A stretch of DNA of 64,000 bases from an uncultured bacterium (GCA_964576535.1 CAZNWB010000002.1:28470-92469); one strand, 5' to 3'. Counted from the stretch's first letter, positions 8,945 to 64,000 are shown. The notes: a model not told the origin generated them from the letters alone. Made by a program: numbers and translations.

Positions 8945-9004
8945 TTGGGACTTCTCAATGAGACGTAAATGTGGCAGGCCAGCGCAGCGCACGAGGAGCT
9001 AGCC

Positions 9005-10852: not shown

Positions 10853-10867
10853 ACGAAGGAGAGGTCA

Positions 10868-11266: not shown

Positions 11267-11287
11267 CGGTACGGAGGAGGAATTCAT

Positions 11288-11440: not shown

Positions 11441-11462
11441 TCGAGCCGGTGAGGATGCCGTC

Positions 11463-45757: not shown

Positions 45758-45758
45758 C

Positions 45759-46040: not shown

Positions 46041-46058
46041 AGAAGACGGGTCCTAGAA

Positions 46059-47267: not shown

Positions 47268-48132
47268 AGAGGTCTTACCCGCGGGCCTCGTGACCACACT
47301 GAAGCACGGCCGGAATACCTTCTTCGCGTATTGGGACCGACTCTTTTCCGTAGATAAGGAAGCCTTCAGGCAGGGGCTCCGGGATCTCGGCATTCGATCC
47401 GGAGAGATCCTGTATGTTCGAAGCTCCTACGATCATATGCGCTCCATTCGTGTCACGCCAGTGGAGAGTATCGAAATCCTCTGCGAGATCGTGGGGAGCT
47501 CCGGGACGGTGGCCATGCCCACATACCCGACGACCGGGCTCTCTCAGGAATATCTCGACGAGAACCCCTTCTTCGACTGGCGCCGTACCCCCTCGCGGTC
47601 CGGCCTCCTTACGGAGGTCTTCCGCCGGATGCCGGGAACCGAGCGCAGTCTTCACCCCACCCACTCCCTGGCCGCCCGGGGCGCCGTGGCCCATTGGCTC
47701 ACCCATGGCCATGAAGAGTGCGAGACCCCCTTCGACGAACATTCGCCCTACCAGAAGCTCCTCGACGCGAACGCCTTCGTCCTGAGCATCGGCCACTTTG
47801 ACGATACGCCCCTGCGTCACCTTGCGGACCATGCCGTTCAGGATCAGATTCCCTATCCGATTTACACCGACCGAGCCACGAAAGTCCGCGTGATCGCAAA
47901 GGACGGCACGGAACACGTGATCATGGTTCGGGCGCATAATCCAGCGCTTCGTTGCGACTTCCGCATCGTGCTTCCGCTTATGGCCCGCGAAGGCCTCCTG
48001 AAGATGAGCAGGGTGGGCAGAGTACCCGTGTTCCTGTTCAGGCTCCGGCCATACGTCGAGGCCTATCGCCGCTACTACGAACAGGGGTTATTTTGGCACT
48101 ACCTGGAACCACTTGCGGCCGGGCGACGATGA
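47230..48132 (+). CDS. AAC(3)-family (aminoglycoside N3-acetyltransferase-like) acyltransferase
   Basis: 'GTVAMPTYPT', 'TPSRSGLLTEVFRRMPGTERSLHPTHSLAARG' and 'HSPYQKLLDANAFVLSIG' follow the Antibiotic_NAT pattern. Confidence 0.65.
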   Translation: MGVCVRNALRTLKEVLPAGLVTTLKHGRNTFFAYWDRLFSVDKEAFRQGLRDLGIRSGEILYVRSSYDHMRSIRVTPVESIEILCEIVGSSGTVAMPTYPTTGLSQEYLDENPFFDWRRTPSRSGLLTEVFRRMPGTERSLHPTHSLAARGAVAHWLTHGHEECETPFDEHSPYQKLLDANAFVLSIGHFDDTPLRHLADHAVQDQIPYPIYTDRATKVRVIAKDGTEHVIMVRAHNPALRCDFRIVLPLMAREGLLKMSRVGRVPVFLFRLRPYVEAYRRYYEQGLFWHYLEPLAAGRR

Positions 48133-48749
48133 AATTGCTCGGCATCTCGGGCAGTGCGACCAAGAGCGGCCGAACACGAGCCGCAGTGCAGCTCGCGCTC
48201 GACTCAGCGCGCCATATCTTGCCGGAACTTGACACCCAGCTCGTCGACCTCTGTGAATGGAAGGTGTCGCTGTTCGACGGGCGGCCGCTCGCCGAGTACA
48301 CGGACGACACACAAGGTGTCGTCGAGATGATTCAGCATGCAGATTGCTTCCTCATCGGCAGCCCTATATATCGCGGCACGTACACCGGGGCTCTCAAGAA
48401 TCTCTTGGACCATGTCCCACTCGAGGCCTTGATGGGGAAGGTCGTAGGGCTCATCGCGACAGGAGCGACGGCACATCATTATTTGGCCATCGACCACGAA
48501 CTCCGGGCCCTGATGGCATATTTCAATGCCTACGTGCTGCCCGGCAGCGTGTATATCGAACAGGCTCAATTCCGGGAGCAAGATGTGGTTGATTCTCAAG
48601 CGCTTCAGCACTTGTACCAGCTCGGCCAGAGCGTCGTGCAAGCCGCCAAAGTACTGCGCGGAGTGGTACCTTCGCCTCCTCCGCTAGCGCAATGGATACG
48701 AGCGACGCGTCCTCGCAAGTCAACTCACCGTCTTAACCCCAGCGCGTAG
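48129..48749 (+). CDS. NAD(P)H-dependent FMN reductase (likely partner of the LLM oxidoreductase)
   Basis: ATGA overlap. 'MKLLGISGSATKSGRTR', 'ADCFLIGSPIYRGTYTGALKNLLDH' and 'VGLIATGATAHHYL'. Its last codons and stop lie inside repeat copy A. Confidence 0.75.
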   Translation: MKLLGISGSATKSGRTRAAVQLALDSARHILPELDTQLVDLCEWKVSLFDGRPLAEYTDDTQGVVEMIQHADCFLIGSPIYRGTYTGALKNLLDHVPLEALMGKVVGLIATGATAHHYLAIDHELRALMAYFNAYVLPGSVYIEQAQFREQDVVDSQALQHLYQLGQSVVQAAKVLRGVVPSPPPLAQWIRATRPRKSTHRLNPSA

Positions 48750-48779
48750 GCGAACGATCCTGCTGGGGCTCGGAGTGCT
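48741..48779 (+). repeat. Copy A: 39-nt fragment of the 5' end of the PrsT-like gene
   Basis: 'agcgcgtaggcgaacgatcctgctGgggctcggaGtgct' versus 63474-63512 is 37/39 identical. It encodes 'ARRRTILLGLGVL'. Confidence 0.8.
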
Positions 48780-48844
48780 ACTGATGGCAAGTACCAGCAT
48801 CGACGCGAATCTGCGGGAGAAGGCACTCTGGCGCTTAGGGGCGG

Positions 48845-49831
48845 ATGAGCATGCAATTTCACGCTGAACCAGTCGCGTCCACTATGCTGCTTCAGGCGCT
48901 GGCGGCGCGCGCCCCAACCAATCCCTTTGTCACACCATCCTACGTCGCCGCGCGCGCCACGCTTGGCGAGCGGCCATGGATATTGGGACTCCAGCAGGAG
49001 GGGCGGTGGGCGGTTGCATGCCTCGCGTTTCTCAGCCCGGGCTGGTTGGCCCGATCGGCGGAAGTGCCTTCCCTCCCGCTCCTCACTTCTGACAACAGTG
49101 CCTTCTGGCAGGGAATACTTTCGTTCGCCCGAAGGCATCAAGTGTGGGAGCTATTCTTGGAGAGCTTCGCGTCTCCTTCTCTCGAACTGCCCCCGCTACC
49201 CGGGGAGCGGGCTCGGCACGCGCGCCGCGAGTATCTAATCGATTTGTCCAATGGGGATCCTTGGCAGACCCTTTCGTCCCATCACAGGCGCAATGTGACA
49301 CGAGCGAAGAAAGAGGGTCTGGCACTACGGCGTACCGCCAACGCGGAGGCTTGCGAGACACACGCTCGGCTAATCTCCGCCTCGTTGTCTCGACGCGCCG
49401 CGCGAGGGGAGGCGGTGGTGACAGTGGCTGAATACACGGATTTCCACCGGGCTCTCATCGGGAGCGGAGCGGCAGAACTCTTTCAGGCTGTCCGCGGAAA
49501 CGAAGTAATCTCGTCAGTCCTCGTTCTGAAGGCGGCGCAAGGAGCGTACTATCAATCCGCGGGCACGCTACAAGATGGAATGGCATGTGGCGCCTCGCAC
49601 TTCCTAATCCATGAAACCTGTCAGGTGCTCAAAGCCGAGAATGTGCATCTGTTCAACCTCGGGGGAGCTGGACCGCACGAGCTGGGGCTGCAGCGATTCA
49701 AGGCGGGGTTCGGCGCGAGAGAACTGCGCCTCGAGGCCGTGCAACTCGTTCTGGCCAGTGGGATCAAGCGCACACTGAGAACTGCGGCGCGGTTACTCTT
49801 GCCCCAGAAGGCTTTCCACGCGCTGTTCTAA
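48845..49831 (+). CDS. FemAB-family / GNAT (Acetyltransf_6-like) aminoacyl- or acyl-transferase
   Basis: 'LSSHHRRNVTRAKKEGLALRR', 'GAYYQSAGT...GASHFLIHE' and 'FNLGGA...GLQRFKAGFGA'. Confidence 0.6.
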   Translation: MSMQFHAEPVASTMLLQALAARAPTNPFVTPSYVAARATLGERPWILGLQQEGRWAVACLAFLSPGWLARSAEVPSLPLLTSDNSAFWQGILSFARRHQVWELFLESFASPSLELPPLPGERARHARREYLIDLSNGDPWQTLSSHHRRNVTRAKKEGLALRRTANAEACETHARLISASLSRRAARGEAVVTVAEYTDFHRALIGSGAAELFQAVRGNEVISSVLVLKAAQGAYYQSAGTLQDGMACGASHFLIHETCQVLKAENVHLFNLGGAGPHELGLQRFKAGFGARELRLEAVQLVLASGIKRTLRTAARLLLPQKAFHALF

Positions 49832-49918
49832 GAACCCCGGGACGCTCTGGGCCGTGTTTACGGATGATCCAAGACACCACGGCCGGATCTAGAGCCTTGG
49901 AAGTCATCTGATGAAGCT

Positions 49919-50686
49919 TTGATAGACCTCGCGACTGAAAGGCGAGAATTGTTATCTCTTCAACCTGGAGGTAGCGATGAAAGGGTGGTTCCCGTAGTAG
50001 CGGCCTACGACTGGCTCTATATCGGGTCATACGGCTGTCGGGTGAGTCCCTTCGTCCTAAACCTGATCTCGAACTTCCTCTTCGTCCCGCTGACAATCTT
50101 CCGTGGGCGAGTTACGCCACAGCGCTGGGTGCGCTACTGGATTTGCCCCTCCGACGTACATTCGGGCACCCCGCCCGCACCCCGGCTCACGCCGGTGACA
50201 GACGAAATCATCCGGCAACTTCGCAATCACCCGGACCGCACCCACAATGAATTACAGTCCGGATTGCGATGGTGGGACCATGGACTGCGCCGAGCCTATG
50301 TCTGGCTCGAAACCGAGGGCCCGCTCTGTATCCAGTGGCTCCTAACCGACGGTGATAATGCGAAGCTCAGGACCCTGCCGATCTGGGCGGGGATGTACCC
50401 GCCGCTTCCACCGGAACGCGGCCAAGTCGAACATCTGCTCAGGTTCACAAATGCGGGGCGAGGGGTTGCCACACAGTTCGCGCGCGCCATGTATGAGGAG
50501 GCGCGACGCGCCGGATTGCGAGACCTTATCACCCACATCCACGAGAACAACGTCCCAGCGCGCGTGTGGGCCGAGCGAACGGGCTGGCGGCGCTACGGGA
50601 CCATCACGCGATACGGATTCGATTTGCCGGGATTGCGAGATCTCAACATCTGCCTACATCGTACGAGCCCTAGTCGGCAATCGTGA
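49919..50686 (+). CDS. GNAT-family acetyltransferase (start uncertain)
   Basis: C-terminal 'GRGVATQFARAMYEEARRAGLRDLITHIHENNVPARVWAERTGWRRYG' is an acetyl-CoA-binding-type motif. The TTG start at 49919 is speculative. Confidence 0.5.
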   Translation: MIDLATERRELLSLQPGGSDERVVPVVAAYDWLYIGSYGCRVSPFVLNLISNFLFVPLTIFRGRVTPQRWVRYWICPSDVHSGTPPAPRLTPVTDEIIRQLRNHPDRTHNELQSGLRWWDHGLRRAYVWLETEGPLCIQWLLTDGDNAKLRTLPIWAGMYPPLPPERGQVEHLLRFTNAGRGVATQFARAMYEEARRAGLRDLITHIHENNVPARVWAERTGWRRYGTITRYGFDLPGLRDLNICLHRTSPSRQS

Positions 50687-50730
50687 GTTGGAGCCGCCGC
50701 GCGACAGGCAGTGGGCCGGAGGGTAAGCGA

Positions 50731-52263
50731 ATGCTCTATACAGTGGCTGACATACTGAGACGTGGCCGGGGACCGAGCCCGGGTGAGAAGGTGGCCATCG
50801 TAGATGGCGACCAACGTGTCACCTATCGAGAACTACACGACCTGGCCCTCGGGTACGGGAACTTATTGAGCGAATCCGGCCTGAAGAAGGGCGATCGTGT
50901 GGCGATCTTCCTGCGGCGCTCTGTCAAGGCGGTGGCTGGCTTGTTCGCCACGTATTTTGCAGGTGGCGTTGCGGTCATCATCAACGAGATGCTACGCCCC
51001 AAGCAAGTGAACTACATCCTAGAGCACAGCCAGGCCTCCTTCCTCATTACCGACAGTCGCCAGCTGCTGTACGTCCCCGAGCCAGCCATTCAGAAGGAAC
51101 GGATCATTAATCTGGATGAAGCGAAACCCACCAGCGCGACCTCTACCTCCGCCTCGGCGATCGGGACCGATCTGGCTCTCATTATCTATACATCGGGATC
51201 CACAGGCCTCCCGAAGGGCGTCATGATCAGTCACGATAATCTCTTATCCGGCGCCGAGATCGTGGCGGACTATTTGAATCTCTCGGCGGATGACACGCTG
51301 ATCAGTCTCCTTCCATTCAGCTTCGATTACGGTCTAAACCAGCTCCTGACGGCCCTGCTCGTCGGTGGGACTCTGGTGATTCAGCGTTCCCTATTTCCGC
51401 CTGATATTTGTAAGACACTGCAACGGGAGAAGGTGACCGGTATGGCAGGCGTCCCCACGCTGTGGCTCCAGCTCATCGACAAACACTCACCCTTTATGAA
51501 GACGACCTTTCCCCGCCTTCGGTATCTTACCAATACCGGCGGCCGCTTGCCGGAGCACGTGGTCCGATTGATTCGAAAGACCCATCCGCAGGTGGACCTC
51601 TATCTCATGTACGGCCTGACGGAGGCCTTTCGATCCACCTATCTGCCGCCAAACCAGACGGATCTGCGACCTACTTCCATTGGAAAAGCCATACCAAACG
51701 TCGAGGTTCTCGTCGTCAACGAGCAGGGGCGCCCCTGCGGCGTCGATGAGGTCGGCGAACTCGTCCACAGAGGCACCACTGTGGCCATGGGCTACTGGCG
51801 TGATCCCAATGCCACGGCCAAAGTATTTCGACCCCACCCATTCCAACAGCCTGGAGGGAATTCGAACGAGAAGGTGGCTTTTTCGGGGGACCTTGTCAAA
51901 AAGGACGGCGACGGGTATCTGTACTACGTCGGCCGGCGCGACCAACTGATCAAATCCCAGGGATTTCGCGTCAGCCCGGAAGAGATCGAGCACTGCGTTT
52001 TCTCCTCACACTTAGTTTCCAACGCCGCCGCCTTCGCCGTTTCGAGCAACGAAGTTGATCCTGATATCGTCGTCGCCGTGAAGCCCAGAGACCCCTCGAG
52101 TTTTCGTCACGAGCTCCTGCACGACTTCTGCAAGCGTGAGATGCCACCTTACTTGCGGCCTCGCGTGATCTGGTGCTTGGACGATTTCCCCCTGACACCA
52201 ACCGGAAAACCGGACCGTGTCGCTCTTCAGAAAGCCTATGTGGACACCCATAAGCGCTCTTGA
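50731..52263 (+). CDS. AMP-dependent acyl-CoA/acyl-carrier ligase
   Basis: 'LALIIYTSGSTGLPKGVMISHDN', 'MYGLTEA', 'FSGDLVKKDGDGYLYYVGRRDQLIKSQGFRVSPEEIE' and 'PLTPTGKPDR'. Confidence 0.85.
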   Translation: MLYTVADILRRGRGPSPGEKVAIVDGDQRVTYRELHDLALGYGNLLSESGLKKGDRVAIFLRRSVKAVAGLFATYFAGGVAVIINEMLRPKQVNYILEHSQASFLITDSRQLLYVPEPAIQKERIINLDEAKPTSATSTSASAIGTDLALIIYTSGSTGLPKGVMISHDNLLSGAEIVADYLNLSADDTLISLLPFSFDYGLNQLLTALLVGGTLVIQRSLFPPDICKTLQREKVTGMAGVPTLWLQLIDKHSPFMKTTFPRLRYLTNTGGRLPEHVVRLIRKTHPQVDLYLMYGLTEAFRSTYLPPNQTDLRPTSIGKAIPNVEVLVVNEQGRPCGVDEVGELVHRGTTVAMGYWRDPNATAKVFRPHPFQQPGGNSNEKVAFSGDLVKKDGDGYLYYVGRRDQLIKSQGFRVSPEEIEHCVFSSHLVSNAAAFAVSSNEVDPDIVVAVKPRDPSSFRHELLHDFCKREMPPYLRPRVIWCLDDFPLTPTGKPDRVALQKAYVDTHKRS

Positions 52264-53425
52264 ACCATTTTTCGAACCCCAGAAACGCTTCGACGCCCTG
52301 AGCGCGGCGACTTTCCGGCGATTCGGGCCGAAGATCGTCGACCTCTCCTACGCGAATCCCTATGACGGGCCGGATGATGAGGTTCGTCAGGCCCTGCACT
52401 CGGCCATAGGGAACACAAAGGATCTTTCGCTCCAATATACCCCATACGGCGGCAAGACCACCACGCGTCGGTTGATTGCCTCGAAGTTGAGTGCCGAGTA
52501 TGGCGTTCCCTTCCACTTCCGCGATGTCGTCATGACGCCCGGGGCGATGGCGGCGCTCAACGTCACGTTCAGAACCCTGTTCGGGCCGGAAGATGAAGTC
52601 CTCGTGCCGACGCCGTGTTGGTTCGACTACCCACTCTATCTGCAGAATCTCGGCATTCCGTACCGGTTCGTGACAACCACCGAAGATAAGCATCTGGACC
52701 TGTCGGCGATTGGTCGCGCCCTAAGCGCACGGACTCGAGCCATTCTCCTCAGCCATCCGTGTTGCCCCACTGGGGTGGTGTATTCGCGAGACGAAATCGA
52801 CGGGCTGGCGGACCTGCTGACGCACGCCGAGCAACGACTCAACGCGCCCATTTACTTGATCAGCGACGAGGTACATCGACACCTGATTTGGCGTACCACC
52901 GAATTTTACAGCCCGCTACAAGCTTACCCCCGCAGCCTCACCATCTACTCGTTTGGTAAGGTGCTATCCCTCCAGGGGCAACGTATCGGGTATGTGGCCG
53001 TGTCCCCCCGAATGCCCGAGCGAGACAGCATGAGAGCGCAGCTGGAGCGATGCGTGAGAATCACCGGATTCTGCGCTCCGACTGCGCTCATGCAGAACGC
53101 CATCTGCCGGCTGCTGGACTACCACCCCCGGCTCGACCTACTCGCCCGCCATCAAGAAACGATCCGGACCAACTTAAAGGCGTGGGGGTACGCGGTGTGC
53201 GACGCCCCGGCCACCTTCTTCGTCTATGTCAAGTCGCCTCTCGCCGATGATTTCGCGTTCACCGAGCTATTGGCGGCCCGAGGGGTGCTCGTCACGCCCT
53301 CGACGCTTTTCCACGAAACCGGATACATTCGTATTTCTCTCACGGCGAAATCCGAGGCCATCGCCGCGGGCCTCCCGGAGTTCCAACGCGTTTTAGAAGA
53401 CCTTGCCCAGTACAAGCATGCTTGA
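52238..53425 (+). CDS. Class I/II PLP-dependent aminotransferase
   Basis: 'IVDLSYANP', 'VLVPTPCWFDYP' and 'SLTIYSFGKVLSLQGQRIGY' (Lys of the SxxK PLP site). Overlaps the ligase gene by 26 nt. Confidence 0.75.
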   Translation: MWTPISALEPFFEPQKRFDALSAATFRRFGPKIVDLSYANPYDGPDDEVRQALHSAIGNTKDLSLQYTPYGGKTTTRRLIASKLSAEYGVPFHFRDVVMTPGAMAALNVTFRTLFGPEDEVLVPTPCWFDYPLYLQNLGIPYRFVTTTEDKHLDLSAIGRALSARTRAILLSHPCCPTGVVYSRDEIDGLADLLTHAEQRLNAPIYLISDEVHRHLIWRTTEFYSPLQAYPRSLTIYSFGKVLSLQGQRIGYVAVSPRMPERDSMRAQLERCVRITGFCAPTALMQNAICRLLDYHPRLDLLARHQETIRTNLKAWGYAVCDAPATFFVYVKSPLADDFAFTELLAARGVLVTPSTLFHETGYIRISLTAKSEAIAAGLPEFQRVLEDLAQYKHA

Positions 53426-54761
53426 GTCGATGACGATGATACACAACTTCTGCTGGGCCGGGGATTCGCCTTGGATGCCCGCGCAGCGCGACTCTACGGC
53501 CAGCAGTATCGACATGCTGCCAACCCTACACGGCCAATTCGCACTCGCTCTCACAAGCCCCGAAGACACCACAGTCACGCTAATTCGTGACCGCCTCGGA
53601 GCCAACAAACTGTTCTTTGCCCTTCACGAATCGGGAACAGTATTGGTCGCCAACTATCTCATCGACCTCGCCCGTCGCGGTGTCCCGTTCGAGTGCATCT
53701 ACTCGGTACCGGCTGGCCACTTCATGGAAATAGACCTGCAGCACCGAGCGCTGCGCCTGATCCCATATTTCTCCCCACGCATAGACGACACCGAAAAGGG
53801 GCAACTCCGGGCTGTAGTCGCCACGACGATCCGCACACACCTTGACCGCTGGTTCAAGAGATTGGCGGAGCAATTCCACTCCCGCCGCATATTTGTGTGC
53901 GTCTCGGGCGGCCTCGATAGTGGCCTCATCGCGGCCTTCGCGAAAAGATATTTTCCCGACGTGACGGCATACACGTTTGGATACACGCAAACCGGCGACG
54001 AGTCCACGGAGGATGCCTACTATGGACGCCTCCTCGCCGAACACCTCGAGCTTCCGTTTCGCTTCGTCCCGGCCTCGTCAGACGACGTACTGAAGGCCGT
54101 CGAGAGTGCACTCGTATACGGGCAGGACTGGCGTGATTTCAACGTCCACTGCGCGATCGTGAACGAATTGCTCGCACGCGCAATGGCGTCTGATTTGGGC
54201 CAGGCAACAGACGGCCTCCCCCCGCTGGTCCTCACAGGGGATCTGATGAACGAGTTCATCGCCGACTATACCCCCGTGGTCTACGGCGGGAGGGAGTATT
54301 ACCCGTTGCCGAAGCTCGACCGCGCCTCCTTGAGACTCGCCTTGATTCGTGGCTTAGACGCTGGCGATCGAGAGGTCGGCATCTTTGCCAGGCATGGGCT
54401 CGATCTCATTCAGCCCTACGGGCTACTCCTCGATCTGTATCTGGCGCTACCAGGCTCTCTCCTTCGCGAGGGGCACGCAAAGCAGACGCTCGCACGCGCA
54501 ATTGCGGGCGACCTCTTGCCAGATTGGATTTTCCATCGAACGAAGGTCCGGGCCCAGATCGGCAACTCCAAGGAACCCGCCGGCATACTCCCCGTACTCT
54601 CAGAGTCCGGCCGCGACGCCGAGTGGATCCAGAACACCTTTCGCGAGCTGCTCGGAATCGAGCACGGCGCATCGCTGAGCCGGTTCATTCGGGCTGGGAT
54701 CTATCGCTTCATCAACGATTTCCCAAGGCGAACAACCACAAATGGCTATTTTATCAACTAG
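53418..54761 (+). CDS. Asparagine-synthetase-B-like PP-loop ATPase with a truncated, Cys1-less N-terminal domain
   Basis: 'IFVCVSGGLDSGLIAA' (SGGxDS) and 'GQFALAL...IRDRLGANKLFF'. No Cys follows the initiator Met, and the N-terminal domain is about 80 aa shorter than in the paralogue at 18608. Confidence 0.7.
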   Translation: MLESMTMIHNFCWAGDSPWMPAQRDSTASSIDMLPTLHGQFALALTSPEDTTVTLIRDRLGANKLFFALHESGTVLVANYLIDLARRGVPFECIYSVPAGHFMEIDLQHRALRLIPYFSPRIDDTEKGQLRAVVATTIRTHLDRWFKRLAEQFHSRRIFVCVSGGLDSGLIAAFAKRYFPDVTAYTFGYTQTGDESTEDAYYGRLLAEHLELPFRFVPASSDDVLKAVESALVYGQDWRDFNVHCAIVNELLARAMASDLGQATDGLPPLVLTGDLMNEFIADYTPVVYGGREYYPLPKLDRASLRLALIRGLDAGDREVGIFARHGLDLIQPYGLLLDLYLALPGSLLREGHAKQTLARAIAGDLLPDWIFHRTKVRAQIGNSKEPAGILPVLSESGRDAEWIQNTFRELLGIEHGASLSRFIRAGIYRFINDFPRRTTTNGYFIN

Positions 54762-55035
54762 CATCGCTCCGGCGATCGAGGAGTTCATCCGACGGGAGCA
54801 TCAGATACCAGACAATGACCCTTTGTACACCCGAGACGCCCACTTGTTCGAATCGGGCTTTGTAGATTCTCTGGGATTTACTCAACTGATTGCCTTCATT
54901 GAGTCCACGTTCGAGATGACATTTGACGTCGAGCATCTGTTCAGCGAGGAATTCACGACAATCAACGGCATCAGTGAGGTGATTCACGCACGCCTCAACA
55001 ACCGACAAGCCAAATCCTCCTGCGCGAACCCCTAA
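54742..55035 (+). CDS. Acyl carrier protein
   Basis: 97 aa. 'LFESGFVDSLGFTQLIAFIESTFEM' carries the Ser attachment motif. Overlaps the AsnB-like gene by 20 nt. Confidence 0.75.
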   Translation: MAILSTSIAPAIEEFIRREHQIPDNDPLYTRDAHLFESGFVDSLGFTQLIAFIESTFEMTFDVEHLFSEEFTTINGISEVIHARLNNRQAKSSCANP

Positions 55036-55297
55036 CGGGCCGCCTCGGCACTGATCATTCTAGAGCCGACGCAGCTTCACGGGGATATTCGGCTTACAGC
55101 GTACCGATGACATAGTTTGGTCAGCGTCTCCTCTAGAGCTCACCCTCCAGTGGTCAGGAATGTTGCCGGGAAAGTGTATGGGAGATGGAATGAGCCGCGC
55201 TAGGAGACGTTCGCGACCGATACGCCGGAGAGTCGCATGGCAAGGCCATAATGGAAAACCCCCGTACGCGTCCGGGAAAGAAGAGCCTCTGAAACTC

Positions 55298-56260
55298 ATG
55301 TTACTACGGGTTTTCGGAAGAACTGGTCTCGAAGTCACTGCACTGGGTTACGGCGCCATGGAGATTCGGGGGCCGCGAATCTGGGGCGGCCGGTCGGTGA
55401 CCAACGCACAGGCGGAGGGCATCCTCAACGCCGTTTTGGATCAGGGGATTAACTTTATCGATACCGCCTATGATTACGGGAAGAGCGAGGACTACGTTGG
55501 TCGATTCCTCAGCCACCGGCGGAAGGAGTTCTATCTGGCGACCAAGTGCGGCTGTACCGTCGTACCCGCCGGAGATCACGACGAGACACCTCATGTCTGG
55601 ACTCGGAAAAACCTTCTCCGGAATATCGAGAATAGCCTGCGCCGCATGAGGACGGATTATGTGGACGTCTGGCAGCTCCACAATCCATCGGTCGAGCAGG
55701 TACGGGCAGGAGATCTCGTTAAGGTGATGGAGGAGGTTCGAGCCGCCGGGAAGGTGCGGTGGATCGGGGTCTCCTCAAGTTTGCCCGACATTATCCCGTT
55801 CATCGAGTGGGGAGTGTTTGGCAGCTTCCAGATCCCGTATTCGGGGCTCGAGCGCCGTCATGAGCAGGTGGTCACCGCCGCCGCACGCGCGGGGGCGGGG
55901 ACAATCATTCGCGGTGGGGTGGCCCGAGGAGCCCCCAGCCCGCAGCGCTGGATCCGCATTCTACTCGGACTCCGGCGGGGCGATCAGTGGGTAGTGTGGA
56001 AGAAGGCCGCGCTGGACGACCTGCGAGCGCCCGGAGAAAGTCGCACCGCCTTCCTTCTCCGTTTTACGCTCTCTCATCCCGATATGCATACAACCATCGT
56101 CGGAACCGTGAATCCCCACCATTTGGCTGAGAACGTGCGGGCGGCCGAGGCCGGCCCGCTGTCCCCTGACACGTATGCGGAGGCTAAGCGTCGGCTGGCC
56201 GCCGCGGGGGAGAACCCCGTCGAGTCCCGGCGCGATCTGTCATGCGCCCTGCCTCGGTAG
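55298..56260 (+). CDS. Aldo/keto reductase
   Basis: 'GRTGLEVTALGYGAMEIRG', 'GINFIDTAYDYGKSEDYVG', 'LATKCG' and 'DYVDVWQLHNP'. ATG 55298 is preferred over 55160. Confidence 0.85.
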   Translation: MLLRVFGRTGLEVTALGYGAMEIRGPRIWGGRSVTNAQAEGILNAVLDQGINFIDTAYDYGKSEDYVGRFLSHRRKEFYLATKCGCTVVPAGDHDETPHVWTRKNLLRNIENSLRRMRTDYVDVWQLHNPSVEQVRAGDLVKVMEEVRAAGKVRWIGVSSSLPDIIPFIEWGVFGSFQIPYSGLERRHEQVVTAAARAGAGTIIRGGVARGAPSPQRWIRILLGLRRGDQWVVWKKAALDDLRAPGESRTAFLLRFTLSHPDMHTTIVGTVNPHHLAENVRAAEAGPLSPDTYAEAKRRLAAAGENPVESRRDLSCALPR

Positions 56261-56467
56261 GCTTGGGCTAACATGTTCCCTCTAACGCCAGAGGCACGAG
56301 CCACATCGGCAAGCCGAATTCGCCCTTCCCCAATTCAGCCCCGGCCGGGCATGCTGTCGAGGTCCGCCAACTACTTGGAGGGGATGGCCAAGCACATGAA
56401 CCATGCTCGCGAACACCGACAAGGTGTGTCCCGTTGGATTCACTGCCTTCCCACGTGAACTGGAAAG

Positions 56468-56941
56468 GTGACGATGTTCCGCAGACCGCATAAACGAACG
56501 ATCCTGCTCGGGCTCGGACTGCTGGTAATCGGTGTGGCGATCGCCGCCGGGGTCTTGTGGTCTCCAGCGGCAAGGAAGGCCCGCCACCTCGAACGCGCCG
56601 ATCGGTATTTCAGCCAGGAGCAGTACCGGCAAGCTATCATCGAATACCGAAACGTCCTCCAGATCGAGGCGACCAACGCGCGATCTGTCCGGCAGCTTGG
56701 CCTTGCTCACTACCAGCTCGGTGAGATGGGGCACGCACTCCGTTATCTTGCGAGATCACAAGAACTCGGGCCAAACGACGTAGGGGTCAGGCTCAAGCTC
56801 GCGACGATCTATCTCCTCACCCGGCGGCCGGACAAGCAGCTCGCCGAGCATAAGGTTCCCCGGCGGATGGATATGAGCGACGAAATGCCACGTGGCGCCT
56901 TGGGGAAGATCAAACTCCGCGCCGAGGATCTCCGCATCTGA
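56468..56941 (+). pseudogene. Copy B: truncated duplicate of the PrsT-like TPR gene (first ~115 codons, then unrelated tail)
   Basis: 'RTILLGLGLLVIGVAIAAGVLWSPAARKARHLERADRYFSQEQYRQAIIEYRNVLQIEATNARSVRQLGLAHYQLGEMGHALRYLARSQELGPNDVGVRLKLATIYLLTR' aligns residue for residue with the gene at 63448. Nucleotide homology runs from about 56487 to 56850. Confidence 0.7.
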
Positions 56942-56988
56942 GCCGGGTAGCCGTCGAGCACGAAGTTCTGCGCATCCTGCGCCACAGC

Positions 56989-57933
56989 GTGCTGCTGGGC
57001 AGCGACCGGCCGGTCTCGCTGACAGAGCCGGTGGCGGATCTGGGCCTGGGATTGGACTCCTTGGGGCTGGTCGAATTCGTCGTCGCGTTGGAAAAGACCT
57101 TCCATGTCCAGTTCCCCGACACGGTTTGGACGCATCGGGAGCAGCTCACCGTCCAGAGTCTCGTCGATTTCATTCTCGCGTCCAATGCGGTGGCATCGCC
57201 CGTCGTCCAAGCACCCCCGCTGCTCCTTCTGGAAACGGGCCCAGCGGACGTTTCCAAGTGGGCCAAGCTAGTCCTGGCGGTTCGCGAACGCGGTGTCTGG
57301 CGCGGCCTGCTCTGGGCTGCCTCCCGCTTTTTCGCACGCGTGCTGCGTCTTGTCTATGAACGCCAGACTTACTTCATTGTGGAATTTGATCTGTCCAGGC
57401 AGCCGCTCCGTGAGTATGCGGCCCCGGAGGGGGTCGTGTTGCGCGAGCTGACGGCTGCGGACGCCGGCGCCCTCCAAGATTTCTGGAACAAGGAACCCGA
57501 CAAGTCCGAAATGGGAAGCTTTCGAGAGCGCCCAGACGGCGACTATATCCGGCTCGGTGCTTGGAGTGGGGGCGAGTTGGTCGGTATCGATTGGCTTTCG
57601 GGGGCGGGCCACGATGCGCACAAGATACGCCTGAGAATCAGGACACGTCCCGGATCTTGCTGGGGCCAGGGCTTATATGAGGGGAAGATGTATCAGGGGA
57701 AGGGAGTGGGCCTGGCTTTGCTGGCACGTTCATTAACCGAAGCTCAGCGGCGCGGCTACGAGAGGCAGGTCACGTACGTCGCCGCCACGAACGCGAGAAT
57801 GCTCAGCGCGACCATCCATTTGCTCGGCTTCAAGAAGATCGGACACATCCAGACCACGTGGATTCTCCGTCGGCCTTATTCGTCCTGGCAGGTCGGAGAG
57901 GAATCCGGTCGCGGCGGAACGGTGGTCGTCTAG
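56989..57933 (+). CDS. Carrier-protein (PP-binding) - GNAT acyltransferase fusion
   Basis: N-terminus 'PVADLGLGLDSLGLVEFVVALEKTF' (Ser attachment). C-terminus 'GKGVGLALLARSLTEAQRRGYERQVTYVAATNARMLSATIHLLGFKKIG'. The first canonical start is GTG 56989, although the carrier-like frame is open from 56854. Confidence 0.65.
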   Translation: MLLGSDRPVSLTEPVADLGLGLDSLGLVEFVVALEKTFHVQFPDTVWTHREQLTVQSLVDFILASNAVASPVVQAPPLLLLETGPADVSKWAKLVLAVRERGVWRGLLWAASRFFARVLRLVYERQTYFIVEFDLSRQPLREYAAPEGVVLRELTAADAGALQDFWNKEPDKSEMGSFRERPDGDYIRLGAWSGGELVGIDWLSGAGHDAHKIRLRIRTRPGSCWGQGLYEGKMYQGKGVGLALLARSLTEAQRRGYERQVTYVAATNARMLSATIHLLGFKKIGHIQTTWILRRPYSSWQVGEESGRGGTVVV

Positions 57934-57980
57934 TGTCGGGAGGGCCGGGCTTTCCCAGCCTTTTTGCCAAGGGAATCCTC

Positions 57981-59489
57981 ATGGACAGCCGGCGCTTTGA
58001 AACATCTGGCGCGCTATGGCGGCTTTTTCATGCGCGGGCGCGGTCGTGGTGGGAACGATTAGCCCTATCGACCACGCGGGGAGAGATGACATTCCGGGAC
58101 CTCTTTGTGACCGCCGAGAAAGTGGCCGCCGCGTTAGGACGAAGCGGCGTCCACGAAGGCAGTGTGATGGGACTCGTGTTGCCGAACTCCCTGGCTTTCG
58201 TCCCGGCGTTCCTCGCCCTCTGCAAGCTGGACGCCACCGTGGCGATGATTTCGCCCAAGTACGGCGCCGGTGAACTGCACGCCATCCGCAACGGCGTACG
58301 ACCGGACGGCTTCCTGACCACCACCGCGCTCGCGACAGCACCACCTTACAACGGCTGTGGCTCCGGCGCTGCGGTGATCGGTGCCGCGGCGGGGGAAGAA
58401 CTGGCCCTGGTGGTTTCTCCTCCGGGCGCCGAGGCGCCCCCCACGACCGGGGTGCTCGAGGATACCGCGGTTATCAAGTTCTCTTCCGGGTCCACGGGCG
58501 TGCCCAAAGGCATCGCGCTGACCGCGGCGAACCTCATGGCCGAGGCCCGCAACGTGGCGGCCACCCTCGCCCTTACGCCCGAAGACCGCATCTTGGCGGG
58601 CGTTCCTCTGTTTCATTCCTATGGGTTCGATCTCGGCGTACTGGCGATGCTGGTCTCGGGCACGCCCCTGCTCCTGCGGGAGTCCTTCGTGCCGCGCCGT
58701 GTTCTCGCGGATCTGTCCGCCCAGAGGGTCACGGTCTTCCTGGGCGTACCCGCCATCTACCGCACCCTGGTGGACACCCCCCTTGCTTCCGTGCCGGATT
58801 TGTTCCACGTCCGCTACCTGATGTCATGCACGGCCCCCTTGTCGCCTGAGCTGATTTCGGCGTTTCACCAGAGATTCCGCGTGCCGATCTGCCAGCATTA
58901 CGGCTCGTCGGAGACCGGCGGCGTAACCACCCACGTTCCGGCCGAGGTGCTACGGCGTCCCACCTCGGTCGGCTTGCCGATGAACGGCGTCGAGGTGGAA
59001 GTGGTGAACGAGAAAGGGGAAGCGCTGGCGCCCGGCATGGAAGGCGAAGTCGTCGTCAGAAGCGCGGCCGTCGCCCGGGGCTATCTCATGGGGATGCCGG
59101 TGGGCGATTCGCCGTTCAGGAGAGGCGCCTATTGGACCGGCGATCTCGGGGTCATCGATGACGAGGGGTTTCTCCATCTGCGCGGGCGCCGGGACACCAT
59201 CATCAACGTCGGAGGATTGAAAGTATCGCCGCAGGAGGTGGTGCAAGTGCTGGAGGCCTTTCCGGCGGTCCGGGAGGCAGCCGTCGTCGGCCTCAGGAAT
59301 GCCATGGGTGAGGAGCTGGTCTACGCGGTCGTTACGCTACGCGGTGTCGCGACCGAGGCGGAGATCCTGGCCTTCTGCCGCACCCGGCTCGCAGATTACA
59401 AGGTTCCCCGGCGCATCGAGATTCGCGCCGAGATGCCACGCACCCCGTCGGGGAAGATCACGTTGCGCCCCGAGCATATTTCCCCATGA
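57981..59489 (+). CDS. AMP-dependent synthetase/ligase (aryl/acyl-carrier ligase type)
   Basis: 'AVIKFSSGSTGVPKGIALT', 'QHYGSSETGG', 'YWTGDLGVIDDEGFLHLRGRRDTIINVGGLKVSPQEV' and 'MPRTPSGKI'. An alternative GTG start at 57933 overlaps the upstream stop. Confidence 0.8.
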   Translation: MDSRRFETSGALWRLFHARARSWWERLALSTTRGEMTFRDLFVTAEKVAAALGRSGVHEGSVMGLVLPNSLAFVPAFLALCKLDATVAMISPKYGAGELHAIRNGVRPDGFLTTTALATAPPYNGCGSGAAVIGAAAGEELALVVSPPGAEAPPTTGVLEDTAVIKFSSGSTGVPKGIALTAANLMAEARNVAATLALTPEDRILAGVPLFHSYGFDLGVLAMLVSGTPLLLRESFVPRRVLADLSAQRVTVFLGVPAIYRTLVDTPLASVPDLFHVRYLMSCTAPLSPELISAFHQRFRVPICQHYGSSETGGVTTHVPAEVLRRPTSVGLPMNGVEVEVVNEKGEALAPGMEGEVVVRSAAVARGYLMGMPVGDSPFRRGAYWTGDLGVIDDEGFLHLRGRRDTIINVGGLKVSPQEVVQVLEAFPAVREAAVVGLRNAMGEELVYAVVTLRGVATEAEILAFCRTRLADYKVPRRIEIRAEMPRTPSGKITLRPEHISP

Positions 59490-59798
59490 ACAGGGACAAC
59501 GTGGAAAGAGAAGTCGTCCGATGCCTGCGCCAGATTGGCGCGTGGACTTGAGCCGGCTCGCGTTTTGCCTGGCCGAAGCGGGGAGGCGTGGCTACCTCAC
59601 CCAGTTCACGATAGTTCGGGCGACGAGTGTGAGGAGGGTATTTCGCAGCCCTTCGTCGACGTGGCGGATCGGCGACCGCTCCGGGCGGGGCAGGGTCGTG
59701 CTGCTCTAGCTCCAAGCGACGGCCGAGCGACGCGACGCGCGCGCTGGGCTATTTTTGAAATGACGCACATTCATGCAGGTAGATGAGAGGGAGGGAAG

Positions 59799-61604
59799 AT
59801 GATGCCTACAAACCAGGAACTCGAGATTGGTGGATCACCCTTGACGATCGAGCAGGCAGACCAGGAATTGGAGATTGGTGGATCACCCTTGACGATCGAG
59901 CAGGTCTTGGCGGTCGCAGACAACCGAGACATCCGCATACGGTTGGCGGATCCGTCGCGGGCGCGCATGACCAGAACGTACCGCTATGTCAAGGACACCG
60001 TTGAAGACTTTCTGCGGCTGTCCGCGGCCGGGAAGCTCGCGTCGCGGGATCGCCTGATCTATGGCGTGAACACGTCATTCGGCGCCTTGAAAGACATCAC
60101 CATGACCACGAGCGAGCAGGCGCGACGCCTGCAACAGAATATCGTGGCTAGCCATGCGGCCGGCGTGGGTAGTGCATTCGAAATCCCGATCATTCGCGCC
60201 GCGATGCTGTTGCAGGCCCATGCCCTGGCCAGCGGCCGTTCCGGGGTCCGCTACGGCGTCGTCGAGCGGCTGGTCGCGCTTCTGAATCGCGGCATCCATC
60301 CCCTCGTTCCTGAACAGGGCTCGGTCGGCGCCAGCGGAGATCTGGTGCCCCTGGCGCATGCCGCGCTGGTTTTGATCGGGAAAGGACGAGCCCAGCATCG
60401 GGGCGCGCTCTACGAGGGGACCGAGGTCGAAGCGCTGCTGCGTGACGCAGGCATATGCGATCTTGAGTGGAAGGATCTAAAGCTCGACTACAAAGAAGGA
60501 CTCGCGCTGGTCAATGGCACCTACACCTCGACCGCCCTTGCCCTCCTCGCCTACCGCCAAGCGGAGACGCTGGTCAAGCATGCCGATATCGCGGCTTGCA
60601 TGAGCCTGGAGGCCACGCTGGGTCATACGCGAGCCTTCGACCGGGTCGTGCACGAGACGCGGCCGCACCAGGGGATGAAAGACTGCGCCGAGAATTTTCG
60701 TACGCTCTTCTCGGTCAGGGACCCTCATACCGGCGAGCCGAGGCTCTCGAGCGAGTTGCTCAACAGGAGCGCGCACGTGCATGATTGCTATTCGCTACGC
60801 TGCTCCCCCCAAGTCCATGGCACGGTGCGGGACGCGCTACGCTTCGTGAGGGAAACCCTCGCGGTCGAGATCAATGCGATCACCGATGATCCCATATTTT
60901 TCAACCCAGAGGAGCTGGACGGCAGCGACATGAAGCCGGTCGACGGCAGGACGGACAAGCTCCATTTCGAGGAGGGCAGCATGCACGGACAACCCGTTGC
61001 GCTGGCCATGGACGTACTCGGCATCGCCCTCACGACCATCGGCGTCATTTCCGAGCGGCGAGTGCAGATGTTGTTGGACAAGAATCACAACGAAGGCCTG
61101 CCGGCGCAGCTCGTCAATAACGACAGCGGCACGAACTCCGGGCTGATGATCGCCCAGTACACGGCCGCGGCCCTCGTGGCGGAGAGCAAGACGCTTTCCC
61201 ACCCGGCTTCGAACGAATCCATTCCGACGTCGGGGAATTACGAGGATCACGTGAGCATGGCCCCGATCGGGGGCCGGAAGGCTCGCACCATCGGCAGGAA
61301 CGTGCAGAACATTCTGGCCATTGAGTTCCTGTGCGCGGTACACGCCTTATGCTTCAGAACCGGAGTGTTGAGTTCGCCACGATCACCGAACGCCGACGGC
61401 GGGGATCACGCGCCAGACGGGCGGATTAGAGGGAGGCCGGCGCCCGGAAGCCTGGCCGCGGTGGAGGCGATACGTCCCGTCATTCGGATGGTTGACTGCA
61501 ACGACGAAGAGTTGCACGGAAGCATAGCCGCGATTGCCGGGATGATTGGCGACAGGACCATAGCGACGGCTGTCGAGCGGGCTATAGGCACGGTGTTGCT
61601 ATAA
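59799..61604 (+). CDS. MIO-dependent aromatic-amino-acid ammonia-lyase family enzyme, histidine ammonia-lyase type
   Basis: RBS 'GAGGGAGGGAAG' upstream. 'YGVNTSFG', 'NIVASHAAGVG', 'GSVGASGDLVPLAHAALVLIGKG' (Ala-Ser-Gly MIO triad) and 'CYSLRCSPQVHG'. At 601 aa it is longer than my recollection of typical HutH (about 510 aa). Confidence 0.85.
   Translation: MMPTNQELEIGGSPLTIEQADQELEIGGSPLTIEQVLAVADNRDIRIRLADPSRARMTRTYRYVKDTVEDFLRLSAAGKLASRDRLIYGVNTSFGALKDITMTTSEQARRLQQNIVASHAAGVGSAFEIPIIRAAMLLQAHALASGRSGVRYGVVERLVALLNRGIHPLVPEQGSVGASGDLVPLAHAALVLIGKGRAQHRGALYEGTEVEALLRDAGICDLEWKDLKLDYKEGLALVNGTYTSTALALLAYRQAETLVKHADIAACMSLEATLGHTRAFDRVVHETRPHQGMKDCAENFRTLFSVRDPHTGEPRLSSELLNRSAHVHDCYSLRCSPQVHGTVRDALRFVRETLAVEINAITDDPIFFNPEELDGSDMKPVDGRTDKLHFEEGSMHGQPVALAMDVLGIALTTIGVISERRVQMLLDKNHNEGLPAQLVNNDSGTNSGLMIAQYTAAALVAESKTLSHPASNESIPTSGNYEDHVSMAPIGGRKARTIGRNVQNILAIEFLCAVHALCFRTGVLSSPRSPNADGGDHAPDGRIRGRPAPGSLAAVEAIRPVIRMVDCNDEELHGSIAAIAGMIGDRTIATAVERAIGTVLL
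59813..59908 (+). repeat. In-frame 48-bp tandem duplication (2 copies) inside the ammonia-lyase N-terminus
   Basis: 59813-59856 versus 59861-59904 is 42/44 identical. It encodes 'QELEIGGSPLTIEQAD' followed by 'QELEIGGSPLTIEQVL'. Confidence 0.9.
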
Positions 61605-61924
61605 CTGTTCCACGGCGCCTCGCGATATCGCAGTTACAGTCGGTTTTCGGGCCGGAGAGTGTATTCCTGGAGTTGACTCCCACCACTCTGTGCCGTACGC
61701 ATCAGGCGCACAAGCGCGCGGTGAGATGCCGCGCTCGCGGTACTCACACCTACATAGGATCTACAGTGGTGCAGATTCTCCACCCGTGTAAGTGCGGTCT
61801 CTGACCGCAAGCTTTCCTCTCGTGAGCCTGCCACGCGGGATCATCGCTAGACAGACGTTGGTCAGTTGCGCGAATGCTTTAAACGGGCGCGCGGCTCACT
61901 CAGCAGCGTAAGAGGGAGGAGAAA

Positions 61925-62608
61925 ATGGGTCCATATCGGAAATCCCGGTTTAGCAGCAAACGGTGGCGTGCGCGGGCGCTGCGGTGGCGATGCTGGCTCG
62001 ACCGGCCCTTCGAGCACCTCCTGAACGTCCGGACGCCCCCCGACCTCGGGCCGGGCGGGAAGCGCGGCAGCCTCGGTGACGGCACCTGTCATGTGCCGTT
62101 CCCCTATCTGATGCTCCCATACCTGATGTCGCCGCTGCGGATCTCCGCGACGGATGTCGTGTTCGACGTGGGAGCTGGGGCCGGCCGCGTCGTGTGCTAC
62201 CTGGCCCGGCGCCCCATCCGGAAAGTCGTCGGAGTGGAGCTCATGCCGGACCTAGCCGAGCGCGCGTCGAGAAACCTCGCGACCCTCCGCGGTCGGCGCG
62301 CGGAGACCGAGATCATCTGCACCGACGCCGCGCTGGCGGACTACTCCGGAGGCACAGTGTACACGTTCTACTACCCTTTCGGTCCGGAGACCCTCGAGGC
62401 GGTACTAGGACGCATCCGTTCCTCGCTCACCGACGGCCGGACCATCCGTCTGGCGTTTTTCGACGTAGAAGAGGAGCACCGAGAGGTCCTCGCCTCCTGT
62501 GGCTGGCTCTGGTGTTACGCGCGTCGCGAGCCGCCGTTCTACATGACGAACGGTGCGTACTGGACGAGCTCGCCGTCTCCCGACCAAGCCCGTCTGGGAG
62601 TCCGTTGA
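61925..62608 (+). CDS. Class I SAM-dependent methyltransferase
   Basis: RBS 'AGGGAGGAG' upstream. 'VVFDVGAGAGRVVCYLARRPIRKVVGVELMPDLAERA' is the GxGxG motif I plus acidic motif II. Confidence 0.7.
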   Translation: MGPYRKSRFSSKRWRARALRWRCWLDRPFEHLLNVRTPPDLGPGGKRGSLGDGTCHVPFPYLMLPYLMSPLRISATDVVFDVGAGAGRVVCYLARRPIRKVVGVELMPDLAERASRNLATLRGRRAETEIICTDAALADYSGGTVYTFYYPFGPETLEAVLGRIRSSLTDGRTIRLAFFDVEEEHREVLASCGWLWCYARREPPFYMTNGAYWTSSPSPDQARLGVR

Positions 62609-62820
62609 GCCGCTCGGCGCGTCTGCGCCTGGCCACCCGCCGGACCTGGGCGCGCCTGATCCGCAAGATCTACGAGGCGGACCCCCTCCTCTGTCCCTGG
62701 TGCGGCGCCACGATGAAGGTCATTGCCGTGATCGAGGATGAGGAGGTTATCTACCGAATCCTGGCCCACCTGCACCTGCTGGCTCCAGGGGACGGCCCAC
62801 CGCCCCCACCCACGGAAGTC
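62605..62820 (+). mobile_element. IS91-family transposase C-terminal fragment
   Basis: 'TWARLIRKIYEADPLLCPWCGATMKVIAVIEDEEVIYRILAHLHLL' parallels the IS91 tail 'LLKRVFE.DPL.CP.CGG.MRIIA.IED..VI.KIL.HLGL'. No catalytic domain lies upstream. Confidence 0.65.
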
Positions 62821-63051
62821 GGCTCCGGCGCCCCAGCCAGTGGTGGACCCCGGGAGCTGATCCGGTCTACGACGACCTCGCCTGGGCCGAACCCGCTTGA
62901 CCCCTTTGTCTGCCACCCCGCCGACGGACCAGGGAAGGCTGCCATCTGCCCGATGGCCTGTATCAGGGAGTGACTGGATGATGGACTCTGTGGCTCTCTC
63001 CTGGACGGAACGTCAGGCCCCGGCCACGCCGGCCACGCCCGAGAATGGCCT

Positions 63052-63375
63052 TTAAAGGCCTAGCTTGGTTTTTACTTGCTCGACAAAGCGGTCCTTCACC
63101 TGAGACGAGGTGTCGACGTAGTGCTCCGCGGCAATCTCGGATTTCGCGCGCGAAATCTCAATCGCCAACCCCAAGAGACCCCCATCTATCCCTGGGCTGT
63201 CGGTGCAGTTTCGGGGCAAGGCGCTACACCGCCGCATGCGTGAAGCCACCGCACGATTCGTCGACTTCTGGAACCGTCCATCACTGAAAACCCAATGGCG
63301 CCTGGGCAAGAGGAAGGTATAGACCATAGTAACGGTGCGCTTCCCGTGGATGAAGGGCAAGTGGTGCCGCGCCAT
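63052..63375 (-). pseudogene. Possible degenerate tyrosine-recombinase (integrase) C-terminal remnant
   Basis: 'FQKSTNRAVASRM...GLLGLAIEISRAKSEIAAEHYVDTSSQVKDRFVEQV' loosely parallels 'FHDLRHTFASRL...ELLGH.SI.MT.RY.H.S...L..AV'. The catalytic residues are not all conserved. Confidence 0.3.
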
Positions 63376-63447
63376 CGGATCGCGTCGAACCCTGACTGCT
63401 GAGGCTGCCGGACGGCCTCACGGGCGCTGGCGACTAGGGAGGAGTTG

Positions 63448-64000
63448 ATGAAGCTGAAGGCGGATCTCCATAGAGCGCGTAGGCGAACGATCCTGCTCGG
63501 GCTCGGACTGCTCCTCATCGCTGTGGCGATCGCAGCCGGGCTCCTATGGTCTCCGGGGGCACGGAAGGCCCGCCATCTCGCCCGGGGCGATCGGTATCTC
63601 GGTCAGGCGCAATACCGGGAAGCTGTCATCGAATACCGAAACGTCCTCCAGATCGAGGCGAGCAACGCGCGCGCGATCCGGCAGCTTGGCTTCGCTCACT
63701 ACGGGCTCGGTGAACTGGGGCACGCATTCCGCTATCTCGCGAGGTCGCAGGAACTCGGGCCAGACGACGTAGGGGTTCGGCTCAGGCTCGCAACGATCTA
63801 TCTCCTGACCCGGCAGCCGGAGAAGGCCCGGGAGCAGGCAGCGTCCGTTCTTGAGAAAGAGCCGAAGAACCTCGAGGCGCTCGGCCTGCTGGCGGGGGCG
63901 GCGAACACACCGCAGGAAATTGACGCCACGGTCCGTCGCCTCGAGGAAGCGCGCGCTGACCTCGGCGATAAAGCGAAGTTCCACCTCGCGCTTGGGACCC
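63448..64000 (+). CDS. Copy C: PrsT-like PEP-CTERM-system TPR-repeat protein, N-terminal part (3' end outside window)
   Basis: RBS 'GGGAGGAG' upstream. A signal/anchor 'RRRTILLGLGLLLIAVAIAAG' is followed by TPR-type repeats 'AQYREAVIEYRNVLQIEASNARAIRQLGFAHYGLGELGHAFRYLARSQEL'. The frame is open to the window end. It is absent from the ORF track because no stop falls within the window. Confidence 0.7.
   Translation, partial: MKLKADLHRARRRTILLGLGLLLIAVAIAAGLLWSPGARKARHLARGDRYLGQAQYREAVIEYRNVLQIEASNARAIRQLGFAHYGLGELGHAFRYLARSQELGPDDVGVRLRLATIYLLTRQPEKAREQAASVLEKEPKNLEALGLLAGAANTPQEIDATVRRLEEARADLGDKAKFHLALGT

Follow-up and report, generated by a model that had tools for sequence, protein, structure and literature searches.

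The 64,000-nt stretch of DNA analysed here (CAZNWB010000002.1:28470-92469 of GCA_964576535.1; hereafter the window) comes from an uncultured bacterium, judged from its nearest relatives to be Rokubacteria/Methylomirabilota-like. The whole window is a single + strand polysaccharide locus, with PEP-CTERM-type glycosyltransferases, an amidotransferase, an O-antigen-ligase-like protein and a ligase encoded upstream of prsT, the gene for a TPR-repeat protein. The 5′ end of prsT is present three times in direct orientation, and these copies (A, B and C) separate three gene sets, numbered 0 (upstream of A), 1 (between A and B) and 2 (between B and C). Copy C (63448..64000, + strand) is the 5′ part of an intact prsT that continues past the window end. 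Copy B (56474..56836, + strand) holds the ~121 codons with which a prsT allele begins; it has a ribosome-binding site and an ATG of its own and breaks off at about nt 378 in C numbering. Copy A (48741..48788, + strand) is 48 nt long, comes from inside the prsT 5′ region, where it corresponds to C codons ~9-25, the membrane anchor, and has no start codon. The arrangement is a real and well-supported mosaic that adds one more case to an evolutionary process already known, and its reading as a serial gain of gene sets is broadly right.

A mechanical repeat finder, local alignment and blastn were applied to the window and gave concordant results for all three copies. Copies B and C (56483-56836 versus 63472-63825) agree at 302 of 354 nt (85%) without gaps (E 4e-115), copies A and C (48741-48788 versus 63474-63521) at 43 of 48 nt (E 1.6e-12), and copies A and B at 32 of 37 nt; the repeat similarity noted in a preliminary description of this DNA therefore survives alignment statistics. 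So do the identity of 37/39 over the first 39 nt of copy A and the overlap of this copy with the end of an FMN-reductase open reading frame (ORF), the TAG of which (48747-48749) it straddles. Start to start, the copies are 7744 nt (A-B) and 6989 nt (B-C) apart, as expected from the intervals of 7.7 and 7.0 kb given earlier. At the protein level, ORF 56468-56941, which contains copy B, matches the C protein at 79% across 118 residues, close to the repeat of ~350 nt and the alignment of ~115 aa first described. The stretch CGAACGATCCTGCT is common to A, B and C, and exact runs of 29 and 36 nt are common to B and C. The A/C and B/C similarity blocks open no more than 2 nt apart, in agreement with the common start claimed for the repeats, but a true and sharp left breakpoint is found in copy A only: weak similarity between B and C reaches back to their start codons, with a 15-nt length difference between them, and B keeps its start codon. 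The common left edge is mostly the onset of conserved coding sequence. On the other side, homology with C stops at about +75 for A versus about +378 for B (C numbering). No fourth prsT remnant was detected by blastn or tblastn at the left edge of gene set 0 or elsewhere in the window.

The complete copy C was recovered on JGI contig Ga0136847_10082994 (L157), where it occupies positions 4668-6872, is intact and encodes 734 aa, confirming that an intact TPR gene begins at 63448. The full protein scores 335 bits against TIGR02917, the PrsT equivalog model for the TPR-repeat protein of the XrtA/PEP-CTERM system, and passes the cut-off of 312.2; the fragment in copy B alone reaches 43 bits. Directly downstream of copy C, an XDD4 exosortase-dependent surface protein is encoded, and a tblastn search with the exosortase (xrt) of a related Rokubacterium locus (L133) as query gave no exosortase homologue in the window. 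The N-termini of A, B and C read ...AAG(L/V)LWSP..., with W in the place of the lipobox Cys that marks a lipoprotein signal, and PrsT proteins of this subclass are accordingly predicted from their sequence to be membrane-anchored rather than lipoproteins. The lipobox Cys is kept in 142 of 147 related loci, and the W-for-Cys subclass is common to the window copies (48742-48788, 56474-56580 and 63448-63560), L002, L003, L075 and P0003, and is found also in L133 (4850-4920). A perfect 18-nt palindrome, GATTTCGCGCGCGAAATC, lies at 63140-63157, about 290 nt upstream of the start of the intact prsT, and could be an operator or an element end. Several prsT calls on long contigs (P0016, P0039, P0041, P0048 and P0052) have out-of-frame tails after 150-250 aa, and none of the 59 database matches to an N-terminal query exceeds 312 aa; frameshifted or split prsT genes seem to be common in assemblies of these high-GC genomes.

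Both upstream copies are fused to pieces of other genes. The in-frame extension of copy B, earlier taken for an unrelated tail, is the 3′ end of an acyl-CoA ligase gene (last ~32 codons), which is followed by the start of an acyl carrier protein (ACP) gene. This stump of a ligase paralogue (56846..56941, + strand, in frame with copy B) is supported by blastn, protein alignment and NCBIfam: it matches 59387-59477 (59387-59545 for the tail as a whole), the 3′ end of the gene set 2 ligase, at 75% nt identity (blastn, E 1.7e-11) and the ligase C-terminus at 52% at the amino-acid level, and its NCBIfam matches are acyl-CoA synthetase C-termini. Downstream of the complete set 2 ligase there is merely a 16-codon ACP 5′ stub (59501-59551). 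The GTG start of this stub (59501) stands opposite a GTC at 56954 in the ACP-GNAT gene that follows copy B, which suggests that the ACP-GNAT ORF may be N-terminally shortened or decaying. The frame of copy A runs on into 'SIDANLREK...' and meets a stop 15 codons further, and this tail (48797..48867, + strand, in frame with copy A) is a probable 3′ stump, of the last ~22 codons, of an SQHop-cyclase-like gene. The assignment is suggestive only, and is based on a nucleotide match to 47194-47218 (22/25, E 0.002), on the fit of 'IDANLREK' to the conserved C-terminal motif V/I-D-A/S-N-x-L-E-K/R of the large SQHop-cyclase-like family, one member of which lies 1.5 kb upstream, and on a SQHop C-terminal profile, for which the A-tail peptide is the top non-self match among 1850 six-frame window peptides (E 0.09).

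The right end of gene set 2 carries the C-terminal stump of an IS91-family transposase (62641..62800, + strand) of ~50 aa, which was recognized by an NCBIfam ISCR model (E 7e-5) and by tblastn, with 44-51% identity to annotated IS91 transposases. The IS91 fragment previously reported upstream of copy C is thus present as this stump only, and the integrase-like remnant reported with it was not recovered: among all ORFs of at least 40 aa on both strands of 62.5-63.5 kb, Pfam and NCBIfam searches gave no integrase or recombinase match at E <=0.1. The window contains no tRNA and no Rfam match, and consensus promoter and terminator scans of it were uninformative.

The substitution pattern of copy B bears on when it was truncated. 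B and C differ with a dS (synonymous divergence) of 0.33 and a dN (nonsynonymous divergence) of 0.11 (omega 0.33). When the 19 amino-acid differences between them were polarised with 36 outgroup sequences, B was found to keep the outgroup-majority residue at 10 of the 19 sites and C at 9. Derived changes would be expected to pile up in a copy that was dead since its duplication, but B has no excess of them; it is therefore the stump of an allele that stayed functional for the greater part of the time in which B and C diverged, and its truncation came late.

The gene sets on either side of the copies were annotated with NCBIfam and Pfam, and all lie on the + strand. Gene set 0 (42641..48749), a third adenylation/ACP/GNAT set, encodes an LLM-class monooxygenase, an amino-acid adenylation enzyme, a GNAT protein, an ACP, an SQHop-cyclase-like protein, an AAC(3)-like acetyltransferase and the FMN reductase, the adenylation/ACP/GNAT genes being paired with those for the monooxygenase and the reductase. 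Gene set 1 (48845..56260) encodes FemAB-like and GNAT-like proteins, an acyl-CoA ligase of the exosortase-associated type, an aminotransferase, an AsnB-like protein, an ACP and an aldo-keto reductase. Gene set 2 (56989..62608) comprises an ACP-GNAT fusion, a FadD-like ligase, the ACP 5′ remnant, a HAL/aminomutase-like enzyme and a methyltransferase. The gene content of the intervals is as first described, but they are not self-contained or clean mobile units, since their left ends are truncated genes. The three ligases are pairwise 23-28% identical, and the intervals are therefore not duplicates of each other. Repeat finding and blastn gave no nucleotide similarity between the intervals besides the prsT pieces, and by blastn the regions upstream of B and C are not similar to each other. 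The GC profile per cassette, the calculation of which had been proposed, gives a GC content at third codon positions (GC3) of 0.70 for set 0, 0.69 for set 1 and 0.77 for set 2, and of 0.79 for the gene just upstream of set 0.

Within gene set 1, the aldo-keto reductase (55298-56260) has its nearest homologues (77-86%) in unrelated, non-polysaccharide neighbourhoods, and may be a hitch-hiker rather than a pathway member. A search for gene set 1 in other contexts, carried out by way of this enzyme, gave unrelated neighbourhoods only. No match in 160 loci was obtained for the gaps at 42.3 and 59.5 kb or for the intergenic DNA that precedes B and C. In gene set 2, a 48-nt tandem duplication (94%) is present at 59809-59904, at the 5′ end of the HAL/aminomutase-like gene, and repeats a 16-aa N-terminal peptide, NQELEIGGSPLTIEQA. 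Exact-protein look-ups of the HAL-like protein, with two different starts, and of ORF B, with a GTG start, gave no match.

Related loci, 72 from genomes and 80 from metagenomes, were found with an alignment query, a scan with copy C alone having given no relatives. Three full-length paralogues, which would have indicated an ancient duplication followed by decay, were not seen in these relatives: within 10 kb, none of 148 related loci has another prsT of full length. What lies upstream of prsT is not conserved among the 148 loci. Where an exosortase gene is located upstream (54 loci), the gap between xrt and prsT is at most 925 nt in 46, and the other 8, among them the closest relative L074, have inserts of 3.2-7.7 kb; prsT is thus a conserved anchor gene that borders a hypervariable interval. 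In about 40 related loci (for example L011, L017 and L089), a near-constant ~630 nt separates prsT from the point where the exosortase match ends; this is probably an exosortase C-terminal extension absent from the 385-aa query.

Displaced partial copies of the anchor gene, with variable truncation points, have arisen independently in the window, in L027 and in L133/L134. In L027, a metagenome-assembled genome of the Syntrophobacteraceae, an 807-nt prsT pseudogene (84% then 93% identical to the intact prsT, and interrupted once by a frameshift and once by a stop) is followed by a deacetylase gene, a GNAT gene, a 30-nt mini-remnant, a methyltransferase gene and the intact prsT; the mini-remnant consists of a ribosome-binding site, ATG and 5 codons (28/30 nt). 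In L133/L134 (Rokubacterium), a frameshifted remnant lies directly 3′ of the exosortase gene and is separated from the intact prsT by 5 kb that encode an unknown, a porin-like and a FemAB-like protein. The junctions in these genomes are positioned at about +13 and about +880 (L027) and about +270 (L133). The displaced and intact copies of L133/L134 come from different lineages: the remnant N-terminus is of the membrane-anchor class and that of the intact copy of the lipoprotein class, and the intact prsT of L133 is 80-81% identical to those of L109 and L111, the exosortases of which are just 58-62% identical to that of L133. Summed tblastn scores, which are noisy beyond that point, show that the remnant was not copied recently from the intact gene. 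In L109, L111, L119 and L120, xrt is followed directly by prsT, so that L133 provides both an empty-site comparison and phylogenetic discordance. The cassette-free site called for by the preliminary description therefore exists for L133; none was found for the lineage of the window itself, because no relative is close enough and the species-representative genomes are too distant.

On balance, the prsT remnants are probably best regarded as scars of homology-anchored, non-site-specific additive recombination that stacked decoration gene sets. Here, prsT would be the conserved right-edge gene of a variable stretch in an exosortase/PEP-CTERM-type exopolysaccharide locus, into which DNA of related bacteria, carrying a different decoration set together with its own prsT start (or whole prsT), would have been integrated at least two times. 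The right side of the incoming DNA would pair homologously within or beyond prsT, and its left side would be joined non-homologously inside the resident prsT. This could be accomplished by homology-facilitated illegitimate recombination (HFIR) or by single-crossover integration of a circularised fragment ending inside prsT, and the two routes fit equally. During each event the resident sets would be kept and the 5′ end of the resident prsT would be shifted upstream as a dead stub, leaving one intact prsT at the right; small deletions may later have trimmed the stubs, by which A would have lost its start. The outcome would be three stacked adenylating-enzyme/carrier-protein/acyltransferase sets, each added set presumably modifying the polysaccharide. 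The earlier proposal of repeated insertions that displaced partial gene copies is borne out in so far as the cassettes are not duplicates, B evolved under constraint, and the pattern recurs in L027 and in L133/L134, with empty sites for the latter.

Several observations weigh against this reading. B and C are mutual nearest known relatives (79% versus <=75% for others), which also fits paralogues in one lineage. Over the same 48 nt, A is more similar to C (43/48) than B is (40/48), a misfit with a simple order in which the oldest copy is on the left, and A needs a further deletion to account for its missing start. HFIR is described in PMC5361080, on the basis of earlier work cited there, as rare in experiments. 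Finally, searches gave no donor or pre-insertion sequence of this lineage in which microhomology at the joins, or the place of the crossover, could be seen.

Among the other explanations, the source being a metagenome-assembled contig raises the question of an artefact in which strain variants of one metagenomic population were chained at shared prsT sequence; B and C do share exact runs of 29 and 36 nt, and Logan contigs break at the 36-nt run. The junctions, however, fall outside these runs. An independent JGI contig (L001) contains those of A and B at 100% identity, two Logan assemblies of other runs contain the junction of B with the ligase, and a third contains the join between the aldo-keto reductase and B; on the C side, the second JGI contig, L157, overlaps 58781-64000 of the window with 2 mismatches in 5220 nt. 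The junctions having been recovered in independent assemblies, the structure is not an assembly chimera, and an artefact is hardly credible. In-situ tandem duplication of a ~7 kb unit (a gene set plus the prsT 5′ end) followed by divergence would explain the similar spacing of the copies and the similar enzyme classes of both units, and is very improbable: the ligases are too far apart in sequence, the two units differ in the order and content of their genes, the DNA preceding B is not similar to that preceding C, and B, which in this model is a pseudogene from birth, shows no excess of derived changes. The intervals being without homology, tandem duplication is largely ruled out. Serial integration of islands at a single att-like core in the prsT 5′ end, with islands that carry replacement 5′ ends, is the mechanism that had first been put forward, and three direct repeats sharing CGAACGATCCTGCT, the near-coincident openings of the similarity blocks, the alike insert sizes of 7.7 and 7.0 kb and the IS91 stump near C all speak for it. 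It is nevertheless highly unlikely. The junctions at about +13, +75, +270, +378 and +880, the truncated cargo genes and the lack of a recombinase argue against a site-specific mechanism: the crossover side differs between A (+75) and B (+378), those of L027 and L133 are at still other positions, the repeats are 85-90% identical with no conserved core, the island ends are truncated genes, Pfam and NCBIfam show no integrase on any frame of 62.5-63.5 kb, no tRNA is present, and the shared left edge is where conserved coding sequence begins, B having kept its start codon.

A two-step course, corresponding to the alternative offered in the preliminary description, in which blocks with a complete prsT (foreign or paralogous) once stood in tandem and the upstream copies were then cut by deletions reaching into the next gene set, is closer to the observations and is considered possible, if somewhat doubtful. 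The constraint on B, which retains its own ribosome-binding site and ATG, speaks for it; truncated genes on either side of the junctions are what deletions are expected to leave, other deletion scars (the ACP and IS91 stubs) are present, and B and C are each other's nearest relatives. Against this, a pair of full-length prsT genes within 10 kb is missing from all 148 related loci, more events are needed and every deletion has to start inside prsT. Additive acquisition would still be required, so that this course differs from homology-anchored additive recombination in the origin of the stubs alone. It is also conceivable, though rather unlikely, that the extreme 5′ end of prsT acts as a true hotspot across phyla, used by a dedicated mechanism so far unrecognised, for example integration of 5-8 kb fragments packaged by a gene-transfer agent or of another circular intermediate. 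If so, decoration cassettes would be modular, and recombination between stub repeats would result in precise cassette loss with regeneration of an intact prsT.

The arrangement in the window resembles several known systems. Complex class 1 integrons illustrate how rolling-circle capture by ISCR/IS91 elements yields partial duplications. The stump at the right end of set 2 is oriented with the upstream genes on the co-mobilised side, and homologous integration of a circular intermediate gives partial duplications in such capture as well. Unlike in ISCR/IS91 capture, the B junction is away from the IS end, and no IS remnant accompanies A or the remnants in L027 and L133; of the intact Y2 transposase that characterizes these elements only ~50 C-terminal residues remain, and no search for oriIS was made. 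Island accretion by integrases at tRNA, tmRNA or gene-end att sites likewise gives inserts bracketed by partial direct repeats with one intact end copy, but here there is no recombinase, constant crossover point or conserved core, and truncated genes form the ends of the inserts.

Closer parallels are found in the displacement arrays of type VI secretion system (T6SS) and rhs loci. Orphan immunity genes that lie within T6SS clusters of Vibrio cholerae were described by Kirchberger et al. 2017 (PMC5361080), who proposed HFIR, and rhs C-terminal displacement and the orphan modules of contact-dependent inhibition (CDI)/Rhs systems are mentioned there with reference to Jackson 2009 and Poole 2011. 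In those arrays, as in the window, the variable region has a conserved gene at its border, new modules arrive by recombination anchored in that conserved part, and the former variable part, still carrying some of the conserved sequence, is displaced; integrases play no role, and repeated events make the array longer. The window is a mirror image of them: what is displaced from the anchor gene is its 5′ end, which goes upstream, whereas T6SS and rhs arrays have 3′ tips downstream; its cargo consists of polysaccharide decoration genes rather than toxin/immunity pairs, and its stubs appear dead instead of forming a reservoir of usable tips. HFIR, as presented in PMC5361080 with citation of de Vries & Wackernagel 2002, Prudhomme et al. 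2002 and Meier & Wackernagel 2003, combines one homologous anchor with one illegitimate join to give additive integration, with variable joins that interrupt genes, as seen here. According to the same account it was shown experimentally in naturally transformable species, whereas the host here is an uncultured Rokubacteria-like organism.

Two further features of the locus lie upstream of the gene sets. A low-GC patch at 36669-39461 (0.50-0.53 versus ~0.64 in the flanks), which holds an unannotatable 537-aa ORF and a GT2 glycosyltransferase gene, looks like a further foreign segment. Both carA and carB, for carbamoyl-phosphate synthase, are included in the cluster (8969-15792) and adjoin a gene for a NodU-like carbamoyltransferase, a combination that suggests a carbamoylated polymer.

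The two prsT stubs represent a known kind of genome mosaicism and mark no dedicated insertion site. As prsT usually comes right after the exosortase gene, it is the boundary gene where decoration genes accumulate in exosortase-type polysaccharide loci, and the exosortase-prsT boundary as an insertion hotspot is a useful generalisation. The 5′ stubs allow past acquisitions to be counted in uncultured soil and sediment bacteria. They also account for short ORFs called as 'TPR protein', the 155-aa ORF B among them, and caution against treating these as genes. Through the exact runs of 29 and 36 nt that B has in common with C, gene set 2 could be lost by homologous deletion, with a hybrid prsT as the result, and such deletion by repeat recombination is predicted to make surface-polymer chemistry variable within the population.

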